Positions 22,661 to 39,428 of a DNA stretch of 64,000 nt are shown piece after piece (position 1 is the stretch's first letter; each line of letters begins with the position of its first letter). Both the position numbers and the translations under genes were made by a program. The DNA lies in IMG/VR virus record IMGVR_UViG_3300032050_000072, positions 1 to 64,000 of that record. One strand, given 5' to 3'. The notes beneath the pieces are model-generated. The model was not told the DNA's origin, made no database searches, and saw only the letters and a list, made by a program, of their open reading frames with translations. Source of the stretch: a virus.

Positions 22661-23896
22661 TTAGGACCGTCCCACTAATGATCGCTTGATCGCCTCCCGT
22701 AGCGTAGTCCGCAGCGGCACCTTGATCTCGGGCGGCACCGTCTTCAAAAATCCTCGCGGCAAATTATCGACCAGAACCTCACTCCACTTGCCGCTTGCCG
22801 CGAGCCCGAGAATCTGCGGAGCGTGATGCCGACCCTCGCCAGCGTCGTACTTGCTGACCTCGATACTGCCGTCGCATCGAATCACCGCGCTGACCGTGAA
22901 GTCCTCGGACCATTCGACGAACTTTAGCTCATTACTCCAGGCATTGACATCGAACCTCCTGAAATTGATCGCCGGATGGTTCGGCTTGGGCTGGAACGCA
23001 ACCTCACGCCAGTGCCCAGGTGTCGCGGTGATCGCCTCAAGCTCCGCGATCGTCCACGGTGGCTTGCTGCCCGTTGCTTCGTAGAAAGCCTCGTTCGTTA
23101 CGTCGCCGCTAGCATCGACAAACCAAACGCGACCACTCACGGAGTCGGTATCGAGAAACTGGAACTTGGCACCTTTCGTCTCGAATCGCCGCACCTTGCT
23201 GAACGGCTTGATGACGTACGGAATCCAGACGCCACGCCCCACATGCTTGTCGATCGTGCGAACGTCCCAGCTATCGACGCCTTCGGTGGGCTTGCCGTCG
23301 TGGCCGATCGCCACCGGAAACAGGCTGTCGCTCAACTGCTCAACGTAGTGGACCCGGCTCCAGATGCCCGTGAAATTATTGTACTTGTCGCCGTAGCCGA
23401 CTCCAGAGAGTTCGCCGTTAAAGCTCTGAAAATAGATCGCCCGCTTCGGATAATGGTCGGCCTGCGGAGCGACCGCATTGGCGTGGTCGGCGGCGTAGAT
23501 GACTTTCGAGTGTTCACCGAACGTGTCGCGGTAAATCCTGTGGTTCGTCTGGTCGTTCCCGTGCCAGTCTTCGTTGATTCTGAAATCGACGGTGCCGTCC
23601 GGGTTGATCCGGTCGATGCACTTAACGCCGCCAAAATCACGCTCGGCAAACAAGAACGGGTGATGATCGAAGACCTCGACAAAATCGCCTTGCACGACCG
23701 AACAGCAGACCGTAAACGATCTTAAGGTCGATTGGAGACTACTGTCGTCAAAGTAGTGAGCCAGCCCGCCATGCTCGACGGCTTGTTCTTTGCTCTCGAT
23801 CTGCCAGTAGAAGTTGCCGCGACGGTTTGGGTCGGTTGGCACGAATCGGCGTGGATATCGCCGCTCCTCGTTCAAAATATCCAGCACCTTGCTCAT
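22661..23896 (-). CDS. Hypothetical protein with C-terminal TLREAIKRSL tag
   Basis: 411 aa, aromatic-rich, no family recognised. Confidence 0.75.
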   Translation of the reverse strand: MSKVLDILNEERRYPRRFVPTDPNRRGNFYWQIESKEQAVEHGGLAHYFDDSSLQSTLRSFTVCCSVVQGDFVEVFDHHPFLFAERDFGGVKCIDRINPDGTVDFRINEDWHGNDQTNHRIYRDTFGEHSKVIYAADHANAVAPQADHYPKRAIYFQSFNGELSGVGYGDKYNNFTGIWSRVHYVEQLSDSLFPVAIGHDGKPTEGVDSWDVRTIDKHVGRGVWIPYVIKPFSKVRRFETKGAKFQFLDTDSVSGRVWFVDASGDVTNEAFYEATGSKPPWTIAELEAITATPGHWREVAFQPKPNHPAINFRRFDVNAWSNELKFVEWSEDFTVSAVIRCDGSIEVSKYDAGEGRHHAPQILGLAASGKWSEVLVDNLPRGFLKTVPPEIKVPLRTTLREAIKRSLVGRS

Positions 23897-23973
23897 GACA
23901 TTCGCTCCAAAAGACAGCCACGGCGGCGACGCTCGCTAGCACCTGCCGCCGTGGCACACCACCACAGTGCTCC

Positions 23974-24618
23974 CTAGCTAAACTGCTCGTAGATATCCCG
24001 GCAGATCGACTCCCATTCGCTGAAATGGGCTTGCTCCTCCTCATTCAGCGGCTCTTTGTTCGCGGCTTTCGTGGCGGCACGCTCACCGATCTCGAAGACA
24101 TGCTTCCAGTCTTGGCCCTTCTCGGCGGCGATCTGACGCAGCCGCTCGCGGCCCAGCATCCGGCATCGCATCATCGAAATGCCTTCACCGGCCTTGACGA
24201 TGCTCAGACTGGATCGCATCATTTCGCCGACGCTCTTGCGGATCGTCAACAGCATCGCCAGTGCCGACTCCAGAAGTACCCGGCTTTCGCCGTCGCTCGA
24301 TGCCTTGTCGATCAGCATCGGCTCGACCCGAGCCAAGTCGCGGTCGCACTCCTCTTTGCTGTCGTAATTGAGCGGCATGTCGTCGGTGCATTGCGTGAAC
24401 CGGACTGCCGACTTCATCAGCATGACGGCCAGCGTCATCATCGTGCTGCCGACCTCGGCCTTGCTGCACATGCCATCGGCGGATTCCCGCTCGATGTCCA
24501 TCAGCGTCTCTTCGTACATCGCGAACGCCTCGTCGGCGATTGCGGCGATCGTCTTCGGCGCTGCAATCACAGCCTCGACCAACTCAACATCCTTGACTTC
24601 CTTCGCTGCGGCAACCAT
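23974..24618 (-). CDS. Helical hypothetical protein
   Basis: 214 aa; GAGGAG ribosome-binding site upstream. Confidence 0.7.
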   Translation of the reverse strand: MVAAAKEVKDVELVEAVIAAPKTIAAIADEAFAMYEETLMDIERESADGMCSKAEVGSTMMTLAVMLMKSAVRFTQCTDDMPLNYDSKEECDRDLARVEPMLIDKASSDGESRVLLESALAMLLTIRKSVGEMMRSSLSIVKAGEGISMMRCRMLGRERLRQIAAEKGQDWKHVFEIGERAATKAANKEPLNEEEQAHFSEWESICRDIYEQFS

Positions 24619-24651
24619 TGCTTGTTCTCCTCGAACTGTGGGGTGGAAAAT

Positions 24652-24864
24652 TTAACCGAACACGACCAGCCAGCCTCGAAAGCTCTCGATCATTGAAGCC
24701 CGCACCTTCAAGTGCGTGATCTCGGCCAGTGCGGCAGCCGCCCGACGCTTGCAGGCATCGCCGAACACCGAACCGCCGAACTTGATGTAACCATCGTTCG
24801 CATTGATCGAACCGCCGAACCGCTTGGCGATCAGCTTGACTTGCTCTAGAACTTGCTGGCTCAT
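24652..24864 (-). CDS. Hypothetical protein (cassette gene of P4)
   Basis: ATG within the GAGATCAAGATCATG leader. Confidence 0.6.
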   Translation of the reverse strand: MSQQVLEQVKLIAKRFGGSINANDGYIKFGGSVFGDACKRRAAAALAEITHLKVRASMIESFRGWLVVFG

Positions 24865-24908
24865 GATCTTGATCTCGCTTGACTGGTGGTTATCGTGTTG
24901 GCTCCCTA

Positions 24909-24937
24909 AGTATATCGTCACGCTAGACCAATGTCAA
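24909..24937 (-). promoter_or_regulatory. P4 sigma70-type promoter
   Basis: TTGACA-17 bp-TATACT; palindrome upstream at 24967-24980. Confidence 0.85.
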
Positions 24938-24961
24938 TAAGAAAAATCAGCCATTTGAAAA

Positions 24962-25564
24962 TTATCCGCAACTTGTTGCGGGCAAGGATCGCAACAGGCT
25001 CGCGCGAACGGCATCACGAAGCGTCGGCTTGATTTCCACGGGCAACTCGACGGGCGGCTCGATCTCCACGGGCGTCGCGTTCACGACCGGCTCAAACCGC
25101 CAGCAGAACGGCCTGACCAGATTGCCCTTGCGATTGATAATGCAGAGCGACGGGAAGTGATTCCGATCGTTATCCAGTACACTCTTGTCGAGTGACTTCT
25201 GGAAGTCTTCGCCGAGACGAACGAACTCGAACTCGTCGCCATTCTCGCCATAGCAGCGATCGCGATCTGTCTCTATCAGCCGCATCTTGTCGCCCGGCTT
25301 GAGCCCGTCGACCCAGCGCAGGTCTTCCGGCAGCGAGTGCAGCTTGTTCGTGTGGAACAGCGGCTCGAAGAACGATATGAAGTCTGCGAGCCAAGCCGAC
25401 CATGCCGTTCCGCGTAGCGTGAAGAGAATCGTATCTTTCCCGTGACACAAATCGCGTCCGGTGACTGTCTCGATATCACCGGGCTGGCAGTCTAACAGAT
25501 TCTTGATGCAGCGAATCTTGTCGCCGACCTGCAAGCGGTAGACCCAAGTTGGTATCGCGGTCAT
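24962..25564 (-). CDS. Repeat-domain protein (2 SH3-like units) with TLRDAVRASL tag
   Basis: Units W..LQVGDKI and W..LKPGDKM, each ending in FEP. Confidence 0.75.
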   Translation of the reverse strand: MTAIPTWVYRLQVGDKIRCIKNLLDCQPGDIETVTGRDLCHGKDTILFTLRGTAWSAWLADFISFFEPLFHTNKLHSLPEDLRWVDGLKPGDKMRLIETDRDRCYGENGDEFEFVRLGEDFQKSLDKSVLDNDRNHFPSLCIINRKGNLVRPFCWRFEPVVNATPVEIEPPVELPVEIKPTLRDAVRASLLRSLPATSCG

Positions 25565-27931: not shown

Positions 27932-27975
27932 TTTCGATCTCCGCAACTTGTTGCGTGTTTGGTGGTGGTTGTTGA

Positions 27976-28181: not shown

Positions 28182-28210
28182 AATATATCGTCAAGATAGA
28201 CCTATGTCAA
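28182..28210 (-). promoter_or_regulatory. P5 sigma70-type promoter
   Basis: TTGACA-17 bp-TATATT; identical to P6 from -35 to -10. Confidence 0.85.
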
Positions 28211-28588: not shown

Positions 28589-28617
28589 AATATATCGTCA
28601 AGATAGACCTATGTCAA
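28589..28617 (-). promoter_or_regulatory. P6 sigma70-type promoter
   Basis: TTGACA-17 bp-TATATT; palindrome upstream at 28648-28661. Confidence 0.85.
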
Positions 28618-28664
28618 CAACAAAAATATGAAAAATCGAAAAAATCCCGCAACAAGTTGCGTGG

Positions 28665-30182
28665 CTATTTGAGCAAGTCGCTCATTTTCGGCAGGTCGCC
28701 AGCGCCAAGCGAAAGAACGCCCGGCTCGCGCGTTTCACGGCTCTCAAGATAGGCCCCTGCGTAAGCCACGACATCGACCTGATCGTCATGCGATCCGCGC
28801 GGGAATTGCAGCAGTTCAGCCTCGAAGTCCGACAGCCACGCCGCACCCGATCGGTGGAATACCTTGTGCGATGCGTACCGCGTCAGAACCGCCTCGGATC
28901 GCGTGATCTTATCTCTGGACGCTTTGAGCGCCCGGAACGGCGTGCCGCGAACCTCGCCCGCCTGGATCAAGCCGATACCGGCACCCGTGTCTTCGATCGC
29001 CTGGAATGACAACTGCGGATAGAGCCGCCGCTGGGCAATCATCATCGCATACTGGTCGGGAATCGCCACCCGCTCGCGCCGCATATCGTAGACGAGCAGG
29101 TCGTGGTCGGGTGTTCGTAGAAACGTGCCGACGACCGTGAAGTCGTTTTCCTTGCCGGTCTTCTGGGCCGTGTCGCAGGTCTGGAACCAAGTGCATCGGC
29201 TGGCTTCGTATCGCCTTGAACCGGCATCATCATCGACCACGACGAACTCGACGCCATCGACAAACTCGATTGTGAAGTAGCGGAAGTCCTCCAGCCGGTA
29301 GATCGAGCCGGTCAGCGGGTTTGGTCGCTGCTGCAATTGGCCTGGCGCGTCGAAGCTGAGCCTGATCTTCGACTGATCGACCTTGGCCCTCGGATAAGCC
29401 TGCTCCCAGAGTAGTTCGCCATCGGTCGTGCGCGGATCGGTCCATCCGAGCGATGTCGGCTCCATGCGGTTCGGCTCGAACTCCATAGGCAGAATGATCT
29501 TCTCGTAGCCGCCCTGCCGAATAACGTGACCAGCCAGATCGTCTTCGTGGAGCCGCTGCATGACGATCAACCGCCGCACGCCACGGATTTCACCACGCAT
29601 CGAGATCGTGCCATCCCACCACTCGCGAACTCGCTGCCGCTTGAGCGGCGACCGTGAATCTTCGGCCTTGATCGGATCGTCGCAGATCACAAAGTCGGGA
29701 TGCTCGCCCGTACCGCGACCGCCAATGCTCGTCGCCAATCGCCAGCCGCCATCCGTGTTCTGAAAGCGGGTTTCCTTGTTCTGGTTTCTCAACAGCCGCC
29801 CGAACCGTTCACAGTACCAGTCGCTCTCGATCACGCTGCGGCAGTTATTCGACGCCTTGGTCGACAAGTCCTGAGCATAGCTCGCCACCAGAAACCTTGC
29901 AGACGGCCACCACGTCCAGACCCAGGCCGGAAACAGAATCGAGCAGAGTAGCGTCTTGGTTGTTCCTGGCGGCTGGTTGATGAGCAGGTTGCCAATCTTG
30001 CCGCGAGCCATCGCCTCCAGGTGATCGCAGATCGCCTCGATGTGCCAATTGTCCATGTAGGTCGAATCTTCGACCTGATTCCAGGCCAACTGCACGAAGT
30101 CATAGAAACGACCGCAGCGACGCCGCGACTCGGCAATGACATCACCACGACCCGGCACAAGCGAGCTACGCATTTTCGCCAC
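28665..30182 (-). CDS. terL: Terminase large subunit
   Basis: NWHIEAICDHLEA, INQPPGTTKT (Walker A), ICDDP, IVMQRLHEDDL, QQRP and HDDQVD motifs. Confidence 0.97.
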   Translation of the reverse strand: MAKMRSSLVPGRGDVIAESRRRCGRFYDFVQLAWNQVEDSTYMDNWHIEAICDHLEAMARGKIGNLLINQPPGTTKTLLCSILFPAWVWTWWPSARFLVASYAQDLSTKASNNCRSVIESDWYCERFGRLLRNQNKETRFQNTDGGWRLATSIGGRGTGEHPDFVICDDPIKAEDSRSPLKRQRVREWWDGTISMRGEIRGVRRLIVMQRLHEDDLAGHVIRQGGYEKIILPMEFEPNRMEPTSLGWTDPRTTDGELLWEQAYPRAKVDQSKIRLSFDAPGQLQQRPNPLTGSIYRLEDFRYFTIEFVDGVEFVVVDDDAGSRRYEASRCTWFQTCDTAQKTGKENDFTVVGTFLRTPDHDLLVYDMRRERVAIPDQYAMMIAQRRLYPQLSFQAIEDTGAGIGLIQAGEVRGTPFRALKASRDKITRSEAVLTRYASHKVFHRSGAAWLSDFEAELLQFPRGSHDDQVDVVAYAGAYLESRETREPGVLSLGAGDLPKMSDLLK

Positions 30183-30648
30183 CAGCCGTAGGAATCGCTT
30201 GCCCGCCGTACTCGCGCGAGAGCTTGTCGAGCAATGCTAGCTCTTGATTGCTCAGCTTGCTCAAGTCGATCTGTGCCGGTGGCGGCTCGGGCGGCTTCTG
30301 CGTGACCTCGACCTTGCTCTTGCGGCCCCAGCGATCCGGGTGCTTGCGTTCGAGATAGGTCATGCAAGCCTGCCAGCTTTCCTCCATGTGCTGATTGAGC
30401 TTGGCGACGACTCGAACCTCGGCCTGAGCCTCGGCGTCTTTAACGGCTTGATGAAACTTTCCGTAGACGCTATTCGGCTTTTGCTCGCCGCGCGTCAGCC
30501 AGCGGCTTAGCGTTTCAGCCGGAATCCCGGCGAACTTCGCCGCCACGCAGAGGTAGTTCCCGGCGAGAATAGCCGAGACAATCCTGCTCTGAATCGCTGC
30601 TGTGAGTTTCGTCGGCGCGCCGCCCGGCCCGCCTTTGTAGTTTGCCAT
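30166..30648 (-). CDS. terS: Terminase small subunit
   Basis: PTKLT..HTH..WQA..YLER motif and DLSKLSNQEL tail; directly upstream of terL. Confidence 0.85.
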   Translation of the reverse strand: MANYKGGPGGAPTKLTAAIQSRIVSAILAGNYLCVAAKFAGIPAETLSRWLTRGEQKPNSVYGKFHQAVKDAEAQAEVRVVAKLNQHMEESWQACMTYLERKHPDRWGRKSKVEVTQKPPEPPPAQIDLSKLSNQELALLDKLSREYGGQAIPTAGGENA

Positions 30649-30693
30649 AATGCCCTCTTTGATTGTGCTGCCACGCACGAATACAACAGCTAT

Positions 30694-31365
30694 CTAGCCT
30701 TCGATCAGCCAGCCAGCGAAATCGCCAAACCTGAAAACCTCAACGGCGTGCTCGCCGAGAACCTTCGGGTCAATTGGCCTCTGGACGCCAATGAGTGAAA
30801 TCTCTTTTGCGAGAACCTCATTGGCTGGAACACCTGATGCGATCTTGCCAGCCAGCGTAAGCCTAGAAAGAACCAGCGACGGATAGCCGCCAGTTGGGTT
30901 GCAGCGATCAAATACCACGATCACGCCGCCCTTTCGGCAGCGGCATCGCAGCTTGTCCATGAGATCGCGACGCTTGTCGACCGGCACGAACATCAGCGAC
31001 AGGAATAAGATCGCGACATCAAACGACTGATAATCAAACTTCTCGGCCTGGGCACAAACAAACTCGCCTGGGCCCTCGTATTTAGCCCGCATCGCCTCCG
31101 AGTTGTCTACGCCAACCAGCTTAGCGCCGCGGTCTTCGAGAGTGCCAGCGATCGCCTTGCCGATATTGCCGGTCGAGCAACCGATGTCGTAGACCAAGCC
31201 GCCGTCAGGGATATAGTGCCTTGCCACATGCGACACGACTCCGGTCGTCAAGTCATACCACGGCAACTGCTCGCGAACATGCCTGTCGAACCCGCTAGCG
31301 ATATCTGCTGTCTTGAATGTCCAGTTCCTTGGAATATCGAACCCGACTGCCCCTGCGGTTTCCAT
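30694..31365 (-). CDS. CmoA-like SAM-dependent enzyme (putative carboxy-SAM synthase)
   Basis: WTF..IASGFDRHVREQLPWY..VYDIGCSTG..GVDNS.AM..FLSLMF follows the CmoA pattern (WTFD..F..M..RSVPGY..VYDLGCS.G..DNS.AM..FTLQF). Confidence 0.75.
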   Translation of the reverse strand: METAGAVGFDIPRNWTFKTADIASGFDRHVREQLPWYDLTTGVVSHVARHYIPDGGLVYDIGCSTGNIGKAIAGTLEDRGAKLVGVDNSEAMRAKYEGPGEFVCAQAEKFDYQSFDVAILFLSLMFVPVDKRRDLMDKLRCRCRKGGVIVVFDRCNPTGGYPSLVLSRLTLAGKIASGVPANEVLAKEISLIGVQRPIDPKVLGEHAVEVFRFGDFAGWLIEG

Positions 31366-31366
31366 G

Positions 31367-32734
31367 TCAGTCCTCCGGTAAGTAGCCAAACCTCTTGCGA
31401 AGCTCGGAGTTATAGAATTTCGTCGGTGAAGCAATTCGCCTTGCGATCTCGTCGGCGACGCCACTGGCTCCTTGAAATGTGTCTTTTGGTCGATTGATGA
31501 TCCACTTCGGCAAGATCGACTCTGCCGCCAGCTTGAGCAGTTTCTTGCCAGGAGGCGACTCCGACTTGGTTAATTGCACAGCCGACTCAACAAGCCTCTG
31601 CTCCATGAACGGCAGCCTGCACTCGACTCCGCCAGCCATGAACGCCTTATTGCACCTGACGAAGTTTCCGCGAGACATTTTGGCTAACTGCTCAAGCCTA
31701 AGCCGGATCACGCCGTCGTCGGTTTCGCGGCTGGCTTGGATGCAGAAGTTTCCGTATCCGCCAAACAACTCATCGGCGGCCTCGCCTGACAGGCAAGCCT
31801 TAAACCCCTCTGCTGCAATCCTTTTCGCAAGCGGAACGCACAGCACGGCGATCTCTATCTGAGCCTTGGATGGAATCTCGATCGACTCCATCGCTTCGGC
31901 AATCCCGCGATCAGTTATTCCGACAGGAACTTCAAACAGCTTTACCCCAAGGTCACTACACAAGCGTCTAGCACACAGCAAGTCATTAGAACGCTGATCG
32001 AAGCTCGCCGTAAAGGCTACGACCTCGCGACCAGTTTCAACAGCAAGGCCAAGGATTATGCTGCTATCAAGGCCGCCTGAAATTAAGCAGCAGACGGGAG
32101 CGTCGGCGCTAAGTCTCTTTGCAACACCGTCGCGAAGACGACCAAGCACATCGCCATGAGTACACCGTTCCACGCTGGGCATTGAGTACCACTTGCGCCA
32201 CTCGCCTGTCGTTAAATTGAAAGCGAATCCTGCTGGAACAGATATCGCCTTGACGCCAGCCGGAAACGCCTTTCTTTCCGATGCCCACAGATACCCACCG
32301 TTATGCTTTGCCACATAAACTGGAACCTTGCCGAACGAATCTCGCACTAGCCAGCTATCGCCTTTAGATGGAGTCCACGCGAACGCAAACATGCCGTCGA
32401 GCATCGGCAAGCAATCCATGCCGTGCCTACCGAGCATTGCCGCCAAGACTTCCGTGTCCCCTGTTGTCGCAAACTTCTCACCAGATTCGGCTAGCATCAG
32501 CTTTAGCTCGCGGTGATTCCAGATTTCGCCATTGAACGTCAGCGTCGACCCATTTCGCACGAACGGCTGAGACGAAAGCTCGGATAGATCAACCAGCGAC
32601 AGCCGGACATGGCCATGCACGAAACCGCCATGATTCCTGACGCCGATCCCATCTGGTCCGCGATGCTTGATTTTCTCAAGCATTAAATGCACAGACGACT
32701 CAAGCCCGTTCGTCGCGCCAGCAATTCCGCACAC
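31367..32734 (-). CDS. Asparagine-synthetase-like glutamine amidotransferase
   Basis: GTG start gives MCGIAG (Ntn Cys nucleophile); HRGPD, NGEIWN, SGGLDS (PP-loop), SGEAADELFGGY and RLPF motifs. Confidence 0.93.
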   Translation of the reverse strand: MCGIAGATNGLESSVHLMLEKIKHRGPDGIGVRNHGGFVHGHVRLSLVDLSELSSQPFVRNGSTLTFNGEIWNHRELKLMLAESGEKFATTGDTEVLAAMLGRHGMDCLPMLDGMFAFAWTPSKGDSWLVRDSFGKVPVYVAKHNGGYLWASERKAFPAGVKAISVPAGFAFNLTTGEWRKWYSMPSVERCTHGDVLGRLRDGVAKRLSADAPVCCLISGGLDSSIILGLAVETGREVVAFTASFDQRSNDLLCARRLCSDLGVKLFEVPVGITDRGIAEAMESIEIPSKAQIEIAVLCVPLAKRIAAEGFKACLSGEAADELFGGYGNFCIQASRETDDGVIRLRLEQLAKMSRGNFVRCNKAFMAGGVECRLPFMEQRLVESAVQLTKSESPPGKKLLKLAAESILPKWIINRPKDTFQGASGVADEIARRIASPTKFYNSELRKRFGYLPED

Positions 32735-32738
32735 AAAC

Positions 32739-34061
32739 CTACCCCTGTTTGATCTTCGACAAAATCTGATCTCGAATCGCCGCTGCCACATGCGACATCA
32801 TTACCGGAGGCACGGCACGCCCGAGCCGCTCCCATTGCTGGGCGTAGCTACCAGCTAGAATGAAGTCATCTGGAAATCCGCAGATGCGACGAAGCTCTGC
32901 AATCGAGAACTTGCGACGCTCGGTTGGATGTGTCACGCCAGCAATTGAACCAGCGCCGCCAGCGGCAGTAATTGTTGGGCATGGTCCGTCTTGATCTGGC
33001 CGAACAAGCTGAAAGTATTTTTCAGACTGACCTCCAGGGCCGATATTGTCCCACTCCTTGCCGATCGCGAAGCGACTGATATCAGCTTCCTTCTCAATGA
33101 AAAGCTGAGGCTTCGTGGTGACGCATGGCGACGGACGATCAGTGACTTCGCCGTGGCTAAAGCTAGGGTCGGGCGATCCGGTGTCGTGAACCGCCTTCAA
33201 CTTAAATCCAGCGGTGGCCTCAACGACAGTTTGATGCTTGCCTTTTCCATTCATGCCGTGAGCCATAACGGTTGGCGAAGGATCGTCGGCGCTGTGCTGA
33301 CTGACACCAAAGCCGGACCTCGCACCAGTGTCGGGGTTGATGCCGGACTCGACGCTATTGATCCACGGAAGCGCGTCGCGAATCGAATAGCGATATGGCA
33401 ACGGCTTCGGGTGAACCGGGTCAAGTCCGAGGTCGTTTCTAACGCCGACGAAGATCGTCCGCTGCCTCGCCTGCGGAACCCCGAGCCACTGTGCGTCAAG
33501 CACCTTGCACGACACGCGATAGCCGCACGACTTGAGCTTGGCGAGGATTTCTAGAAAGTACCCCTTGGCCGTGCCTTTGACCAATCCAGATACATTTTCA
33601 GCCACAAACGTCTTTGGCTGCAAGCCTTCGAGTAGCCGGGCGAACTCAAAGAACAGGTCGTCGGTTCGCTGCGCCTTGTCGCTATACTTCTTGACCTTGC
33701 CCCAGCCCTTTTCTCGCTTGCCAGCCGTCGAGAAAGACGCGCATGGCGGCGAACCGTCGAGCAGATCAAGTTCGCCTTGCCGGAGCCCTGTGGCATCAAG
33801 GATTTCACTGGCCTTGACGAGCCTTATATCACGACCATCAAGAATCGTCGTTGCCGACTTATTGGCGGCATAGCTTTCACGCGCTGAGTCGATAAACTCA
33901 GAAGCCCAGACCACCTTGAACCCAGCCATGCGGTAGCCCAGTGAAGACCCGCCGCAGCCAGAGAATGTAGAAGCAACCTTAAAGCCATTCCAAGGCAGGC
34001 CAGCGATTTCAGCCATCGAAGGCACACGGTACGGTGGCTTGTTATCACTTGCCATTTTCAT
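32739..34061 (-). CDS. DNA cytosine-C5 methyltransferase homolog with motif X GRAVPP
   Basis: FSGCGG (I), GSPPCASFS (IV), ENVSG (VI), QARQR (VIII), RICGFPD (IX), LGRAVPP (X). Confidence 0.95.
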   Translation of the reverse strand: MKMASDNKPPYRVPSMAEIAGLPWNGFKVASTFSGCGGSSLGYRMAGFKVVWASEFIDSARESYAANKSATTILDGRDIRLVKASEILDATGLRQGELDLLDGSPPCASFSTAGKREKGWGKVKKYSDKAQRTDDLFFEFARLLEGLQPKTFVAENVSGLVKGTAKGYFLEILAKLKSCGYRVSCKVLDAQWLGVPQARQRTIFVGVRNDLGLDPVHPKPLPYRYSIRDALPWINSVESGINPDTGARSGFGVSQHSADDPSPTVMAHGMNGKGKHQTVVEATAGFKLKAVHDTGSPDPSFSHGEVTDRPSPCVTTKPQLFIEKEADISRFAIGKEWDNIGPGGQSEKYFQLVRPDQDGPCPTITAAGGAGSIAGVTHPTERRKFSIAELRRICGFPDDFILAGSYAQQWERLGRAVPPVMMSHVAAAIRDQILSKIKQG

Positions 34062-34085
34062 TGCTCCATCAAATCAATGTATTGC

Positions 34086-34616
34086 TCAACTAGACTTTCC
34101 ACTCCACGAGTAGCCGCACTTCGGGCAGCGATGGTCTGTGTTGATCGACTCGTCGACCTCTGGAAAATCAACAGGCGACTCGCTGAGTGGCTCCATTGCT
34201 GGAATGGCACCGGCCTTCTCGGCCAAGCTCGTCACGAGTTGCTGCAAACTCTCGTCACTAAACTGGACACTATCGAGCAACTGGGTCAAAGCACCGGCGT
34301 CGGAATCGGCCATCGCGCCAATTGGGTCCATCGTGGCCAGCAGTTTGTTGGCCTCAAATTCGTCGACATCGAGAATCAAAACAGGCACAAGCTCGTCGGC
34401 CCTCGACATGACATCGGCACGCAGGTGTCCGTCAATAATTTCAAGACGACCATCAATCTCACGGGCAATGACGGCGGAAGCCATTCCGATTTCGCCAATC
34501 GCGGCAACCAATGCTTCGCGCTGCCTGATTCCGTGCCTGCGCCAGTTCTTGTCATTTTCGACAAGATCACAAGCTGGAACCATCCTGAGTTCTTTGACTC
34601 GATTTTTAATCGACAT
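34086..34616 (-). CDS. ParB-N/Srx-like protein with C-terminal zinc knuckle
   Basis: NWRRH..Q, IIDGHLR and HRCPKCGYSW motifs; typical partner gene of terminase-linked DNA-modification loci. Confidence 0.85.
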   Translation of the reverse strand: MSIKNRVKELRMVPACDLVENDKNWRRHGIRQREALVAAIGEIGMASAVIAREIDGRLEIIDGHLRADVMSRADELVPVLILDVDEFEANKLLATMDPIGAMADSDAGALTQLLDSVQFSDESLQQLVTSLAEKAGAIPAMEPLSESPVDFPEVDESINTDHRCPKCGYSWSGKSS

Positions 34617-34619
34617 AGG

Positions 34620-34913
34620 CTACTCCGGTTTCTTCGGCTGATACCCGCAGCGGATCGCCGCATCGCGCAGCGCCCAGCGGATCGTCTCAGCGTCGTGAAC
34701 GAATCCCATGAAACTTTTTATCTGCTCGATCTGCTCGAACGTGTCCTTGGTGACACGGACATTGACCTGCGTAAGATAGTTGCCAACCGGAGGTCGGCCC
34801 ATTGGTTTCTTCTCGCGGGCAGCTTTCGGTGCAACGTCGGACTTGGCAGCACGCTTTGGCATGGCGGTTTTCCTCTTGATTGTGTTTTGATTCACCATTG
34901 AACCGGCCTCCAA
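34620..34913 (-). CDS. Small ribbon-helix-helix-like DNA-binding protein
   Basis: MGRPP followed by strand VNVRV and two helices (..AETIRWAL); may start at 34862. Confidence 0.6.
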   Translation of the reverse strand: MEAGSMVNQNTIKRKTAMPKRAAKSDVAPKAAREKKPMGRPPVGNYLTQVNVRVTKDTFEQIEQIKSFMGFVHDAETIRWALRDAAIRCGYQPKKPE

Positions 34914-35017: not shown

Positions 35018-35563
35018 TCAGACCACGCCGGTTTTGATCCCATCGCGGAATTTATTGATTCGATCCACCAGCGACGGCAGGCCGATCAGGTAGCTGCCGA
35101 GCCGAATGATCTCACGATTCGGCGAGTGCTCGTGCGGGCTCAGTAGCTTCATCGCCTCGTCGACCCCGTAGCGGATGGCCGCGATCACGACCGCCAGCGC
35201 CGAACTCCGGCTAATCCCCATGTGGCAGCAGACCAGCAATCGCCTGCGACCATCAGACCACTTGAGCGCGTGCTGCACTTGCTCCACGCGCGGAGCCCTC
35301 CAGTCGGCTTCGTCGCGTGAGACATCATCCATCGGCAGCCTGAGCGTCAGGCCATCGTTGCCGAAGACCGCAGCCGACAACTGCTTGACGAGTTGCCGCG
35401 TCTCTTCGCACGGTCGATCTGGATGGTGCATCGCCGTATCGTGACAGGCGATCGCGTCCCACGGGCCTTGCTGGCGGAAATCGTGACCCTCCAGTCCAGT
35501 CAGCGCCCGAGCGGCCACGGACATCGGCATGATTCTGATCTCGCTGCCGTCGTCGAAGATCAT
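35018..35563 (-). CDS. Cys-based (tyrosine/dual-specificity) phosphatase-like protein
   Basis: CX5R motif CHMGISR and downstream SPN motif. Confidence 0.85.
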   Translation of the reverse strand: MIFDDGSEIRIMPMSVAARALTGLEGHDFRQQGPWDAIACHDTAMHHPDRPCEETRQLVKQLSAAVFGNDGLTLRLPMDDVSRDEADWRAPRVEQVQHALKWSDGRRRLLVCCHMGISRSSALAVVIAAIRYGVDEAMKLLSPHEHSPNREIIRLGSYLIGLPSLVDRINKFRDGIKTGVV

Positions 35564-37896: not shown

Positions 37897-38364
37897 CTAG
37901 CGATCGAACAGCCGTTGCGGAGCTTGGCCCTCTTCGGCTTGCCTTGGCTTGGGTCGGTTGTTCGCGCGCAGGTATTCAACCGTGTCACGGAGTTCAGTCG
38001 GAACCGAGACGCCAAGATCATCAGCGACCTTACTGAGCACATCAAATAAGCCGACAATCGCCGACCAACCTGGGCTCATGTGACTACGACCTCCAGGCTT
38101 GCGAACCGCAAACGGAGAGCCGCCGCTCTTGGTCTTCCGCCGCGACTTGATCTCGACTCCGACGATCTCGCCAGCCTGACAGATCGAAGAGAATCCAACC
38201 GAGAACCCGAGCGACTGCACGGCAAGTGCAGTAATCACTTCGCGCTCCAGCGATCCGCTTCGCAGCTTGTCGGCATTTTGCTCGACCCAATCTTCAAGCT
38301 GACGAGCCTGCTTGCGCGTCAGCGTCCTCGCCTTGTTTCTGGCTCCGAGAATTTCAGCACTCAC
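37897..38364 (-). CDS. Hypothetical protein
   Basis: 155 aa, coupled to the upstream gene. Confidence 0.55.
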   Translation of the reverse strand: MSAEILGARNKARTLTRKQARQLEDWVEQNADKLRSGSLEREVITALAVQSLGFSVGFSSICQAGEIVGVEIKSRRKTKSGGSPFAVRKPGGRSHMSPGWSAIVGLFDVLSKVADDLGVSVPTELRDTVEYLRANNRPKPRQAEEGQAPQRLFDR

Positions 38365-39428
38365 GATTGACCTCCTTCAAGTGCGACCCGCTCACTGGCG
38401 AGATCGCGGTCATTGGCTTTGGCGGCAGAAAATGCGCTGCCGTATCGCTTCTTGAGCTTGGCGACGTTCCGCTCGATCACCGTCTCGCGTTCGACGCCGA
38501 GAATCTTGCGGCACATGCCCATGTAGAACTCGATCTGCCCGAGCACGCCCGCCGCCTTATCGACGCTGATCGGTCGAGCGTAGAACAGATTCTTCTTGAC
38601 CAGATCGAGCAGTTCGCTCGTCTCGATCACCAGATTGCCGAGAGCGTTTTCGTAGGCATCCATTACCGCAGCCGGATCGCTCGGCGGATCGACGACTTTG
38701 TAGAACGAGAACATCGCCGCCCCGGCCACGATCTCGACGCGCGTCATGCCGATCGCCTGCCGCGCCAAGCTGGCGTAGAACTCCAGGTCGCCGAGTTCTT
38801 CGATGGCATTGATGCGGTCGAAGTTGACCGGATCAGGAACGCTCGCCCCGTGCAGCATTTCGCCAACCTCAGTCGACAGGCCCAGAGCCGCGTGCATTAG
38901 GTCGCCGGTTTTGCCGATCGACTCCATGAAGTCAAAGCCGTCGCCGAGCCCCACGAAGTCCTCGATGGACTCGCCAGGATTCGTGCCCAGGCGTGCCAGG
39001 ATTGCACCGTACGACGGTCGGCTGGTGAGTTGGGATACGAACTGGTCGTAGTCGGCATCGCCGCCTAGTGGGCCTGTGGCTGCGTCTGGTGCGTGTTCGG
39101 TATTTTGCTCGGTCATGTTCTCCAAGTCCTTTCGGTCAACAGGGTTATCGAGTTCGTTTTGTTCGGTGTTCGGTTCGGGTTTCGCATCGAACGAACAGCC
39201 GAACAGTTCGGTCAGCAGCTCGGTCGCCGCCTTGGTCATCGCGTAGCGGCGGGCCTCGAATTGTTTCTTCCGCAGGTAGTTGACCCGCTTCGCCATCACG
39301 TTCACGAGGTCGATCGCCTCGCCGCTGGTCGCCACCGCGATCGGCGGGGTTTCCATCGCGAGCATGGCTTCGACAAATGCCTGGGCCAGCCGATCTTGCG
39401 ACAAGCCCAGGCAGGTTTCTGGAATCAT
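38361..39428 (-). CDS. MazG-like NTP pyrophosphohydrolase (duplicated domain)
   Basis: HAALGLSTEVGE..EELGDLEFY, a second ETSELLDLVKK..GQIEFY copy, and N.AKLKKRY. Confidence 0.8.
   Translation of the reverse strand: MIPETCLGLSQDRLAQAFVEAMLAMETPPIAVATSGEAIDLVNVMAKRVNYLRKKQFEARRYAMTKAATELLTELFGCSFDAKPEPNTEQNELDNPVDRKDLENMTEQNTEHAPDAATGPLGGDADYDQFVSQLTSRPSYGAILARLGTNPGESIEDFVGLGDGFDFMESIGKTGDLMHAALGLSTEVGEMLHGASVPDPVNFDRINAIEELGDLEFYASLARQAIGMTRVEIVAGAAMFSFYKVVDPPSDPAAVMDAYENALGNLVIETSELLDLVKKNLFYARPISVDKAAGVLGQIEFYMGMCRKILGVERETVIERNVAKLKKRYGSAFSAAKANDRDLASERVALEGGQS

Follow-up and report, generated by a model that had tools for sequence, protein, structure and literature searches.

What do the four genes that lie directly upstream of the terminase genes in the virus record IMGVR_UViG_3300032050_000072 do to the DNA of the phage that carries them? 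We analysed the first 64 kb (hereafter, the window) of this 83,617-base record, which is linear according to IMG/VR and 100% complete according to CheckV. Six closely spaced minus-strand genes at 28.6-34.6 kb encode a protein with a ParB/Srx-type N-terminal domain (ParB-N), a homologue of DNA cytosine C5-methyltransferases (C5-MTases), an amidotransferase-ligase resembling asparagine synthetase B (AsnB), a protein related to the carboxy-S-adenosylmethionine (Cx-SAM) synthase CmoA, and the small and large terminase subunits, terS and terL. All four upstream genes are found where a preliminary description of this DNA had placed them. That description also proposed that the cassette converts cytosine to 5-carboxymethylcytosine (5cxmC) and then to 5-carbamoylmethylcytosine. 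From homology and context we infer a chemistry of this kind, and put the probability that the cassette is a late-operon DNA hypermodification system of the CmoA-CmoX-CmoY type, in a glutamine-using version, at roughly 0.65.

The CmoA-CmoX-CmoY system has already been published, and the window holds a further example of it but nothing that is new in kind. Yang et al. (Nat Commun, December 2025; PMC12783734) demonstrated it in Synechococcus phage S-B43, so that the earlier suspicion that similar phage systems had been reported proved correct, including the ParB protein and, as a prediction, the amide; only the glycine branch was demonstrated. In that phage, SpCmoA is a Cx-SAM synthase with a kcat of 2.33 s-1, compared with 0.23 for the Escherichia coli enzyme, SpCmoX accepts only Cx-SAM and produces 5cxmC at GC sites of double-stranded DNA, and SpCmoY acts on DNA to ligate glycine to the 5cxmC carboxyl group in an ATP-dependent reaction (PMC12783734). 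SpCmoX residue R350 contacts the carboxymethyl group of Cx-SAM and its R350N variant is inactive; when SpCmoX was expressed in E. coli, the host CmoA was enough to supply it, and resistance to HhaI was demonstrated for 5cxmC only (PMC12783734). As the Discussion of the same paper recounts, the engineered enzyme M.MpeI N374K, a C5-MTase in which a basic residue replaces the motif X Asn, is able to use Cx-SAM; it differs from the window protein in having Lys instead of Arg, in being man-made and in its CG target. The survey reported there found 5,615 CmoX proteins with SPPC and the Arg, 4,257 CmoA proteins, 2,251 ligases and 1,660 ParBc proteins; for a ligase cluster typified by A0A7T0Q3R0, the use of glutamine-derived ammonia was predicted and not demonstrated (PMC12783734). 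Within the open-access literature searched, CmoX in the DNA-modification sense occurs only in this paper, and 5-carbamoylmethylcytosine, including its spelling variants, does not occur. The route proposed for the window is supported in that it follows the published logic, with the transferase, ligase and CmoA-like protein matched to SpCmoX, A0A7T0Q3R0 and SpCmoA, respectively, as their predicted counterparts.

Transferred to the window, this logic would give three steps. First, the CmoA-like enzyme would convert S-adenosylmethionine (SAM) and host prephenate to Cx-SAM. CmoX would then flip out the target cytosine, Cys107 would attack C6, and the carboxymethyl group would be moved to C5 with Arg415 holding the cofactor carboxylate, yielding 5cxmC on replicated double-stranded phage DNA. 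In the third step, which is predicted in print, the ligase would adenylate the 5cxmC carboxylate at its PP-loop site, and ammonia released from glutamine by the Cys1 domain would amidate it to the neutral base 5-carbamoylmethylcytosine. ParB-N would serve as an accessory, and the cassette would be co-transcribed with terS and terL, which would place the modification of the DNA shortly ahead of packaging, with protection against host restriction as the likely benefit. The genome encodes a single C5-MTase. We found no thymidylate-synthase-like gene in it, which fits modification after replication and not at the nucleotide level, and no chorismate mutase, so that prephenate would be supplied by the host.

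The transferase gene (32739-34061, minus strand) encodes a 440-residue protein that matches PF00145 (E 1.8e-55), and the catalytic motifs claimed for it are all present: FSGCGG at residues 33-38, SPPC at 104-107, ENV at 155-157, QARQR at 197-201, RKFSIAELRRICGFPDDF at 383-400 and GRAVPP at 414-419, the last of which includes Arg415 (codon CGT, 32817-32819, minus strand) where ordinary C5-MTases have the motif X Asn. Its closest match in the PDB is SpCmoX itself (8YF3, E 1.4e-68), with HaeIII second (E 1.3e-23). In the alignment with SpCmoX, DGSPPC lies on DGSPPC and ERLGRAVPP on ERVGRMVPP, making Arg415 the equivalent of R350, and the window protein thus carries both features by which the published survey searched for CmoX, SPPC and an Arg equivalent to R350 (PMC12783734). 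Across 42 of 42 aligned orthologues, SPPC, ENV, R199 and R201 of the QxRxR motif, and G414, R415, V417, P418 and P419 are invariant. This close homology to a solved and assayed enzyme leads us to infer that the window protein is of the CmoX type, with 5cxmC as its predicted product.

The genes that accompany this transferase in other viruses point in the same direction. In a scan of IMG/VR, 342 stretches were found to encode a CmoA of the window type, and 80 loci were kept, to which the following counts refer; since the loci were chosen by their CmoA, co-occurrence is counted from the CmoA side. In 60 of the 80 loci, a CmoX is encoded that shares more than 50% identity with the window protein, all 60 of these proteins have Arg at the position of Arg415, and a ParB gene lies upstream in 56 of the 60. 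A glutamine-type ligase is present in only 19 of the 60 loci. In those 19 loci the order is always CmoX-ligase-CmoA, and we conclude that the ligase is optional.

Several of these results sit uneasily with the pathway reading. Besides the low frequency of the ligase, residues 213-353 of the transferase, its target-recognition region, do not align with 8YF3, and orthologue lengths range from 351 to 517 residues, so that the GC specificity of SpCmoX is not transferable to the window protein. The linkage between CmoA and CmoX is not absolute either: 20 of the 80 loci lack CmoX. In eight of these, the contig reaches less than 2.5 kb past CmoA on the upstream side, and a CmoX may lie beyond its end; 12 loci (L068, L011, L037, L055, L058, L060, L063, L064, L067, L069, L070 and L082) have at least 2.5 kb there and still no CmoX. 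In L068 (4385-7642), which we inspected, a ParB_N protein and a 507-residue protein with a weak match to Methyltransf_23 (class I) are followed by CmoA, terS and terL. The 507-residue protein may be a second Cx-SAM-using transferase, and this locus implies that the window-type CmoA also has a partner of at least one further kind.

Three phages carry the systems closest to the window cassette. The S-B43 system has the same three enzyme roles and provides the closest PDB relative of the window transferase, but its gene cluster adjoins primase-helicase genes, and neither a ParB nor a terminase gene is annotated within 5 kb of it. The Streptomyces phage TurkishDelight has the window order, with ParB (gp122), MTase (gp123), an amidotransferase (GATase)-ligase (gp124) and an MTase-like protein (gp125). 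Its cassette stands at the right end of the record and a helix-turn-helix (HTH) protein and the terminase at the left end, across the record junction. TurkishDelight gp123 and the window CmoX share 54.1% identity, with 99% of the length aligned, whereas gp125 is only 27% identical to the window CmoA-like protein. Moraxella phage Mcat8 (KR093632.1) is the sole record among 16 phage-collection matches with a CmoA of the window type (49.5% identical); beside it lies a CmoX homologue (50.3% identical), followed by a small open reading frame (ORF), terminase, portal and coat protein genes, but Mcat8 has no ligase gene. Mcat8 is a cultured temperate phage (locus L087), and the small ORF, CmoX, CmoA and second small ORF at 22861-25425 of its record are all annotated 'hypothetical protein'. 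Among characterised cellular proteins, the CmoA-like protein and the ligase have their nearest homologues in E. coli CmoA (4GEK), which works with CmoB, and E. coli AsnB (1CT9), respectively; no CmoB gene is adjacent to the window cassette.

Of the three enzymes, the CmoA-like protein is the weakest link of the pathway reading. Its listed ORF spans 30694-31464, and a version starting at GTG 31464 would share 98 nt with the ligase gene; most likely, the gene begins at ATG 31365, 1 nt past the ligase stop and preceded by GGAGG, giving a predicted protein of 223 residues (30694-31365, minus strand). CmoA is the nearest family and fold: TIGR00740 is the top NCBIfam family for the window protein and is matched by 38 of 38 members of its subfamily, a profile of 38 homologues retrieves E. 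coli CmoA from the PDB (4GEK, E 6.4e-22) ahead of CysG (E 7e-10), and an AF2 model (pLDDT 85.5) has its top TM-score, 0.82, to 4GEK. Aligned by hhalign, the window subfamily matches the assayed SpCmoA with a probability of 98.2%, although SpCmoA is a remote homologue of only 25% identity that has a K-E dyad in common with the window protein. Of the SAM-contact residues of E. coli CmoA, Y39, D62, G64, S66, D89, N90 and F137 are kept and D117 and N132 are not, the residue roles being drawn from PMC3663124, PMC4482062 and PMC10491745.

The same comparisons also produced the most serious objections. With 52.9 bits, the window protein misses the TIGR00740 cut-off of 193.3 bits and scores only 13 bits above CpaM, and in Foldseek the C-methyltransferases CysG and BelI are level with CmoA by E-value. 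Two SAM-contact residues are changed (D117 to Gln and N132 to Phe). The profile alignment to 4GEK places the K-E of the window subfamily on K198-R199 of E. coli CmoA. Arg199 is described as the sole contact to the Cx-SAM carboxylate in the E. coli enzyme (PMC4482062, PMC3663124), and all 120 subfamily members listed, which include the window protein and are 58-67% identical to it, have Glu there. SpCmoA and gp125 have an Arg four residues further on, one helical turn away at the position of E. coli E203, but the window subfamily lacks this residue as well, with Ile in the window protein and Ser, Ala, Gly, Cys or Ile across the subfamily.

Part of this weight is lifted by the phage enzymes themselves. 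When TIGR00740 was calibrated on known proteins, E. coli CmoA scored 455.3 bits, SpCmoA 115.6 and gp125 89.5, meaning that all of the phage proteins miss the cut-off, the window protein by the most. SpCmoA, too, has Glu at the Arg199 position, both in a BLASTP alignment with E. coli CmoA and in the hhalign alignment with the window subfamily, and since SpCmoA is experimentally active, Arg199 is dispensable for Cx-SAM synthesis. The caveat raised in the preliminary description, that the KR of E. coli CmoA reads KE here, is hence accurate without being disqualifying. Loss of Arg199 may even explain the faster turnover of SpCmoA, because E. coli CmoA is thought to be product-inhibited (PMC4482062).

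The strongest competing explanation, which we nevertheless regard as unlikely, is that the CmoA-like protein is not a Cx-SAM synthase. It would instead be an ordinary methyltransferase, whose substrate could be the newly added carboxyl group or something else, or the maker of a different SAM derivative; Cx-SAM would then come from the host CmoA, or the cytosine adduct would not be carboxymethyl. The low family score, the Foldseek tie, the missing Arg at both positions and the altered N132 and D117 all speak for this explanation, as does the sufficiency of host CmoA for SpCmoX in E. coli (PMC12783734). Set against it are the profile search of the PDB, where CmoA leads CysG by 12 orders of magnitude, the hhalign match to SpCmoA, and the fact that SpCmoA shares both the failed cut-off and the Glu. 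In addition, an Arg-type CmoX neighbours the CmoA-like gene in 60 of 80 loci, and TurkishDelight likewise has its own copy. Mainly because of this genomic context, we consider it quite likely that the CmoA-like protein is a Cx-SAM synthase. Records of Azospirillum plasmids or genomes include two annotated CmoA homologues of the window type (P0042 and P0077, 59-60% identical), a possible clue that relatives of the cassette reside as prophages in Alphaproteobacteria.

The position of the cassette in front of the terminase genes recurs beyond the window. Of 46 loci with at least 3 kb downstream of CmoA, 45 have an ORF of at least 430 residues starting within 2.7 kb; counted per family, these ORFs match terL family phrog_15 (30), phrog_10250 (6), phrog_9 (5), phrog_2699 (5) and phrog_38 (2), with not all 45 established as terL. 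Neither terminase nor packaging is mentioned in the main text of PMC12783734, nor does it discuss the cassette-terminase order or the ParB tail described below. We read this order as co-expression with late genes, such that replicated DNA is modified prior to packaging. The preliminary description had gone further in suggesting that modification is coupled to packaging and that the amide serves against restriction; gene order agrees with these ideas, and nothing beyond gene order supports them. Physical coupling is speculation; the S-B43 cluster is located away from a terminase, and SpCmoX is active by itself both in vitro and in E. coli (PMC12783734).

The first gene of the cassette (34086-34616, minus strand) encodes ParB-N, a protein of 176 residues. 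It matches the Pfam family ParB_N weakly (E 1.7e-3; 18.8 bits, below the cut-off of 26.3), phrog_620 ('ParB-like partition protein') with E 6.6e-14, and phrog_498 (ParB-like N-terminus of phage DNA methyltransferases) with E 1.9e-9. Its box reads IIDGHLR, of the DGHxR type that is the consensus of ParB/Srx N-domains. Among the ParB-N proteins linked to CmoX, the N-domain is divergent (25-35% identity) and the final ~30 residues (window 34086-34175) are near-invariant. In the window protein this tail ends ...DESINTDHRCPKCGYSWSGK, and its consensus, P-[ED]-[DE]-F-x-E-[VF]-[DG]-[ED]-x-I-x-T-[ED]-[HY]-x-C-P-x-C-G-Y-x-W-S-G, contains two Cys and one His, with P148, F151, T160, C164, P165, C167, S172 and G173 invariant across 38 orthologues. 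Such a tail could be a zinc-binding element (half a zinc knuckle) or a docking peptide. ParB-N as a whole is most likely an accessory protein, a DNA-binding helper of the transferase.

A more far-reaching reading, unlikely in our view, is that the cassette is a packaging-linked late module. Here, the CPxCGYxWSG tail of ParB-N would bring CmoX and the ligase to concatemeric DNA by the terminase, and cytosines would be carboxymethylated and neutralised as 5-carbamoylmethylcytosine immediately ahead of entry into the head. The window CmoA, without Arg at either candidate position, would represent a separate lineage of Cx-SAM synthases with weak product binding and fast turnover.

Returning to the reading of the cassette as a CmoA-CmoX-CmoY system, we compared the third enzyme with both published ligase types. 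The listed ORF of the ligase starts at 32791; we refined the start to GTG 32734-32732, 4 nt past the MTase stop, which is most likely where translation begins because Cys-Gly-Ile-Ala-Gly follows directly, giving the N-terminal nucleophile Cys of an N-terminal nucleophile (Ntn) glutaminase. The gene so defined (31367-32734, minus strand) would encode 455 residues, comprising an Ntn glutaminase domain and a PP-loop, AMP-forming ligase domain that match the Pfam families GATase_6/7 and Asn_synthase (E 1e-27 to 2e-40). By exact-sequence look-up, the published type sequence A0A7T0Q3R0 is TurkishDelight gp124. The window ligase matches it over its full length (residues 1-449; 35% identity, E 3e-78) and E. 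coli AsnB (1CT9) with E 1.8e-41. The assayed SpCmoY, which shares the PP-loop with it, is aligned only in that stretch (26% identity, E 4e-5); SpCmoY has 271 residues, lacks a glutaminase domain and ligates glycine, whereas the window ligase has a complete Ntn glutaminase domain.

Aligning the window ligase, gp124 and 20 full-length viral orthologues on E. coli AsnB, we found Cys1, R49, N74, G75, E76, D98, E348 and D351 kept in all of them (20 of 20 orthologues). The PP-loop is kept as SGG[LV]DS, reading SGGLDS in the window and SGGVDS in gp124. The roles of the glutaminase, PP-loop and acceptor-site residues are those described for AsnB. Because the glutaminase residues are all kept, this domain appears to be under selection, and the glutaminase half of the ligase looks functional. 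Where E. coli AsnB has TTIR and human ASNS has TTVR, the window ligase has AQIE, and D384 of AsnB is replaced by Asn in the window ligase, gp124 and every one of the 20 orthologues. With these two changes, the acceptor can be argued not to be aspartate, and the predicted acceptor site is not like that of asparagine synthetase. A bona fide asparagine synthetase B is disfavoured as an identity for the protein, which falls below the cut-offs of both equivalog families (TIGR01536, 260.9 bits with a cut-off of 267.1; PRK09431, 239.9 bits with a cut-off of 499) and shows both of these substitutions.

The step itself could still be different. The ligase might not amidate 5cxmC on DNA but might amidate free Cx-SAM before transfer, attach another amine while its glutaminase idles, or make asparagine for the infected cell. 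We judge this improbable, even though the TIGR01536 score is only slightly below its cut-off, the identity to an assayed CmoY is low and limited to the PP-loop stretch, and the glutamine-type cluster offers no assayed enzyme, the authors having obtained none in soluble form (PMC12783734). Synthesis of asparagine is opposed by the altered TT[IV]R and D384 positions, and an idle glutaminase by the universal retention of its residues. The carboxylate-binding Arg of CmoX is kept with or without the ligase, in 60 of 60 loci of which 19 have it, and this independence fits a carboxymethyl transfer that comes first; the ligase gene lies between CmoX and CmoA in 19 of 19 loci, and SpCmoY is known to act on DNA (PMC12783734). 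Finally, it is very improbable that the transferase is an ordinary 5-methylcytosine methylase in chance proximity to a housekeeping-like amidotransferase and a methyltransferase. The protein does have all canonical C5-MTase motifs, but all 60 linked homologues carry Arg in place of the motif X Asn, Cx-SAM is the only cofactor accepted by its closest solved relative, which is dead as R350N (PMC12783734), and the same gene order is found in viral loci whose terminases belong to several families.

The remaining features of the region concern its expression and surroundings. From ParB-N to terS, consecutive genes are separated by 24, 4, 1 and 15 nt, and terS (30166-30678, minus strand; phrog_4102, E 3.4e-27) overlaps terL (28665-30182, minus strand) by 17 nt. 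The identity of terL was established through its copy in locus L004, which is 100% identical to the window terL by tblastn and matches phrog_38 (E 6.5e-82). Just past the terL stop, a consensus scan gave a pattern match to a terminator-like hairpin (28648-28661, minus strand), which probably closes the transcription unit; such sites number 7 across the region, compared with a mean of 9.1 in shuffled sequences, and are thus not enriched. Past terL lies an identical pair of strong minus-strand promoter-like sites (28589-28617 and 28182-28210; TTGACA, 17 nt, TATATT; 11 of 12 matches), each near a copy of the hairpin CGCAACTTGTTGCG (28648-28661 and 27942-27955), an arrangement that resembles a repeated terminator-plus-promoter module. 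Recent acquisition of the region was considered and is unsupported, as GC content over 30-36 kb (0.556-0.569) is at the low end of, but no outlier to, the remaining bins (0.57-0.61).

Upstream of the cassette on the same strand, a 97-residue ORF without a family match (34620-34913) ends 4 nt ahead of the ParB gene. Also upstream of the cassette, a 181-residue protein (35018-35563, minus strand) has a faint match to dual-specificity phosphatases (Pfam DSPc, E 3.3e-3, below cut-off), and in TurkishDelight a 'phosphatase' is likewise annotated a few genes upstream of the cassette. Further away, a 355-residue protein (38361-39428, minus strand) matches the MazG-like pyrophosphatase family phrog_229 in its C-terminal part (E 1.8e-33), with no family match for its N-terminal 260 residues.

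To the published work, the window makes some modest additions. The glutamine-type example of Yang et al., A0A7T0Q3R0, is traced here to a cultured Streptomyces phage, and the same four-gene order is widespread in uncultured phages. Arg199 of CmoA, long regarded as the signature of Cx-SAM binding, is absent from a proven phage enzyme and from more than 100 relatives of the window protein, and since phage enzymes fail both this residue and the NCBIfam cut-off, annotation rules based on either will miss phage Cx-SAM synthases. Two cultured phages bear on the chemistry, TurkishDelight on the amide base and Mcat8 on the divergent CmoA. If confirmed, 5-carbamoylmethylcytosine would be a new natural DNA base.

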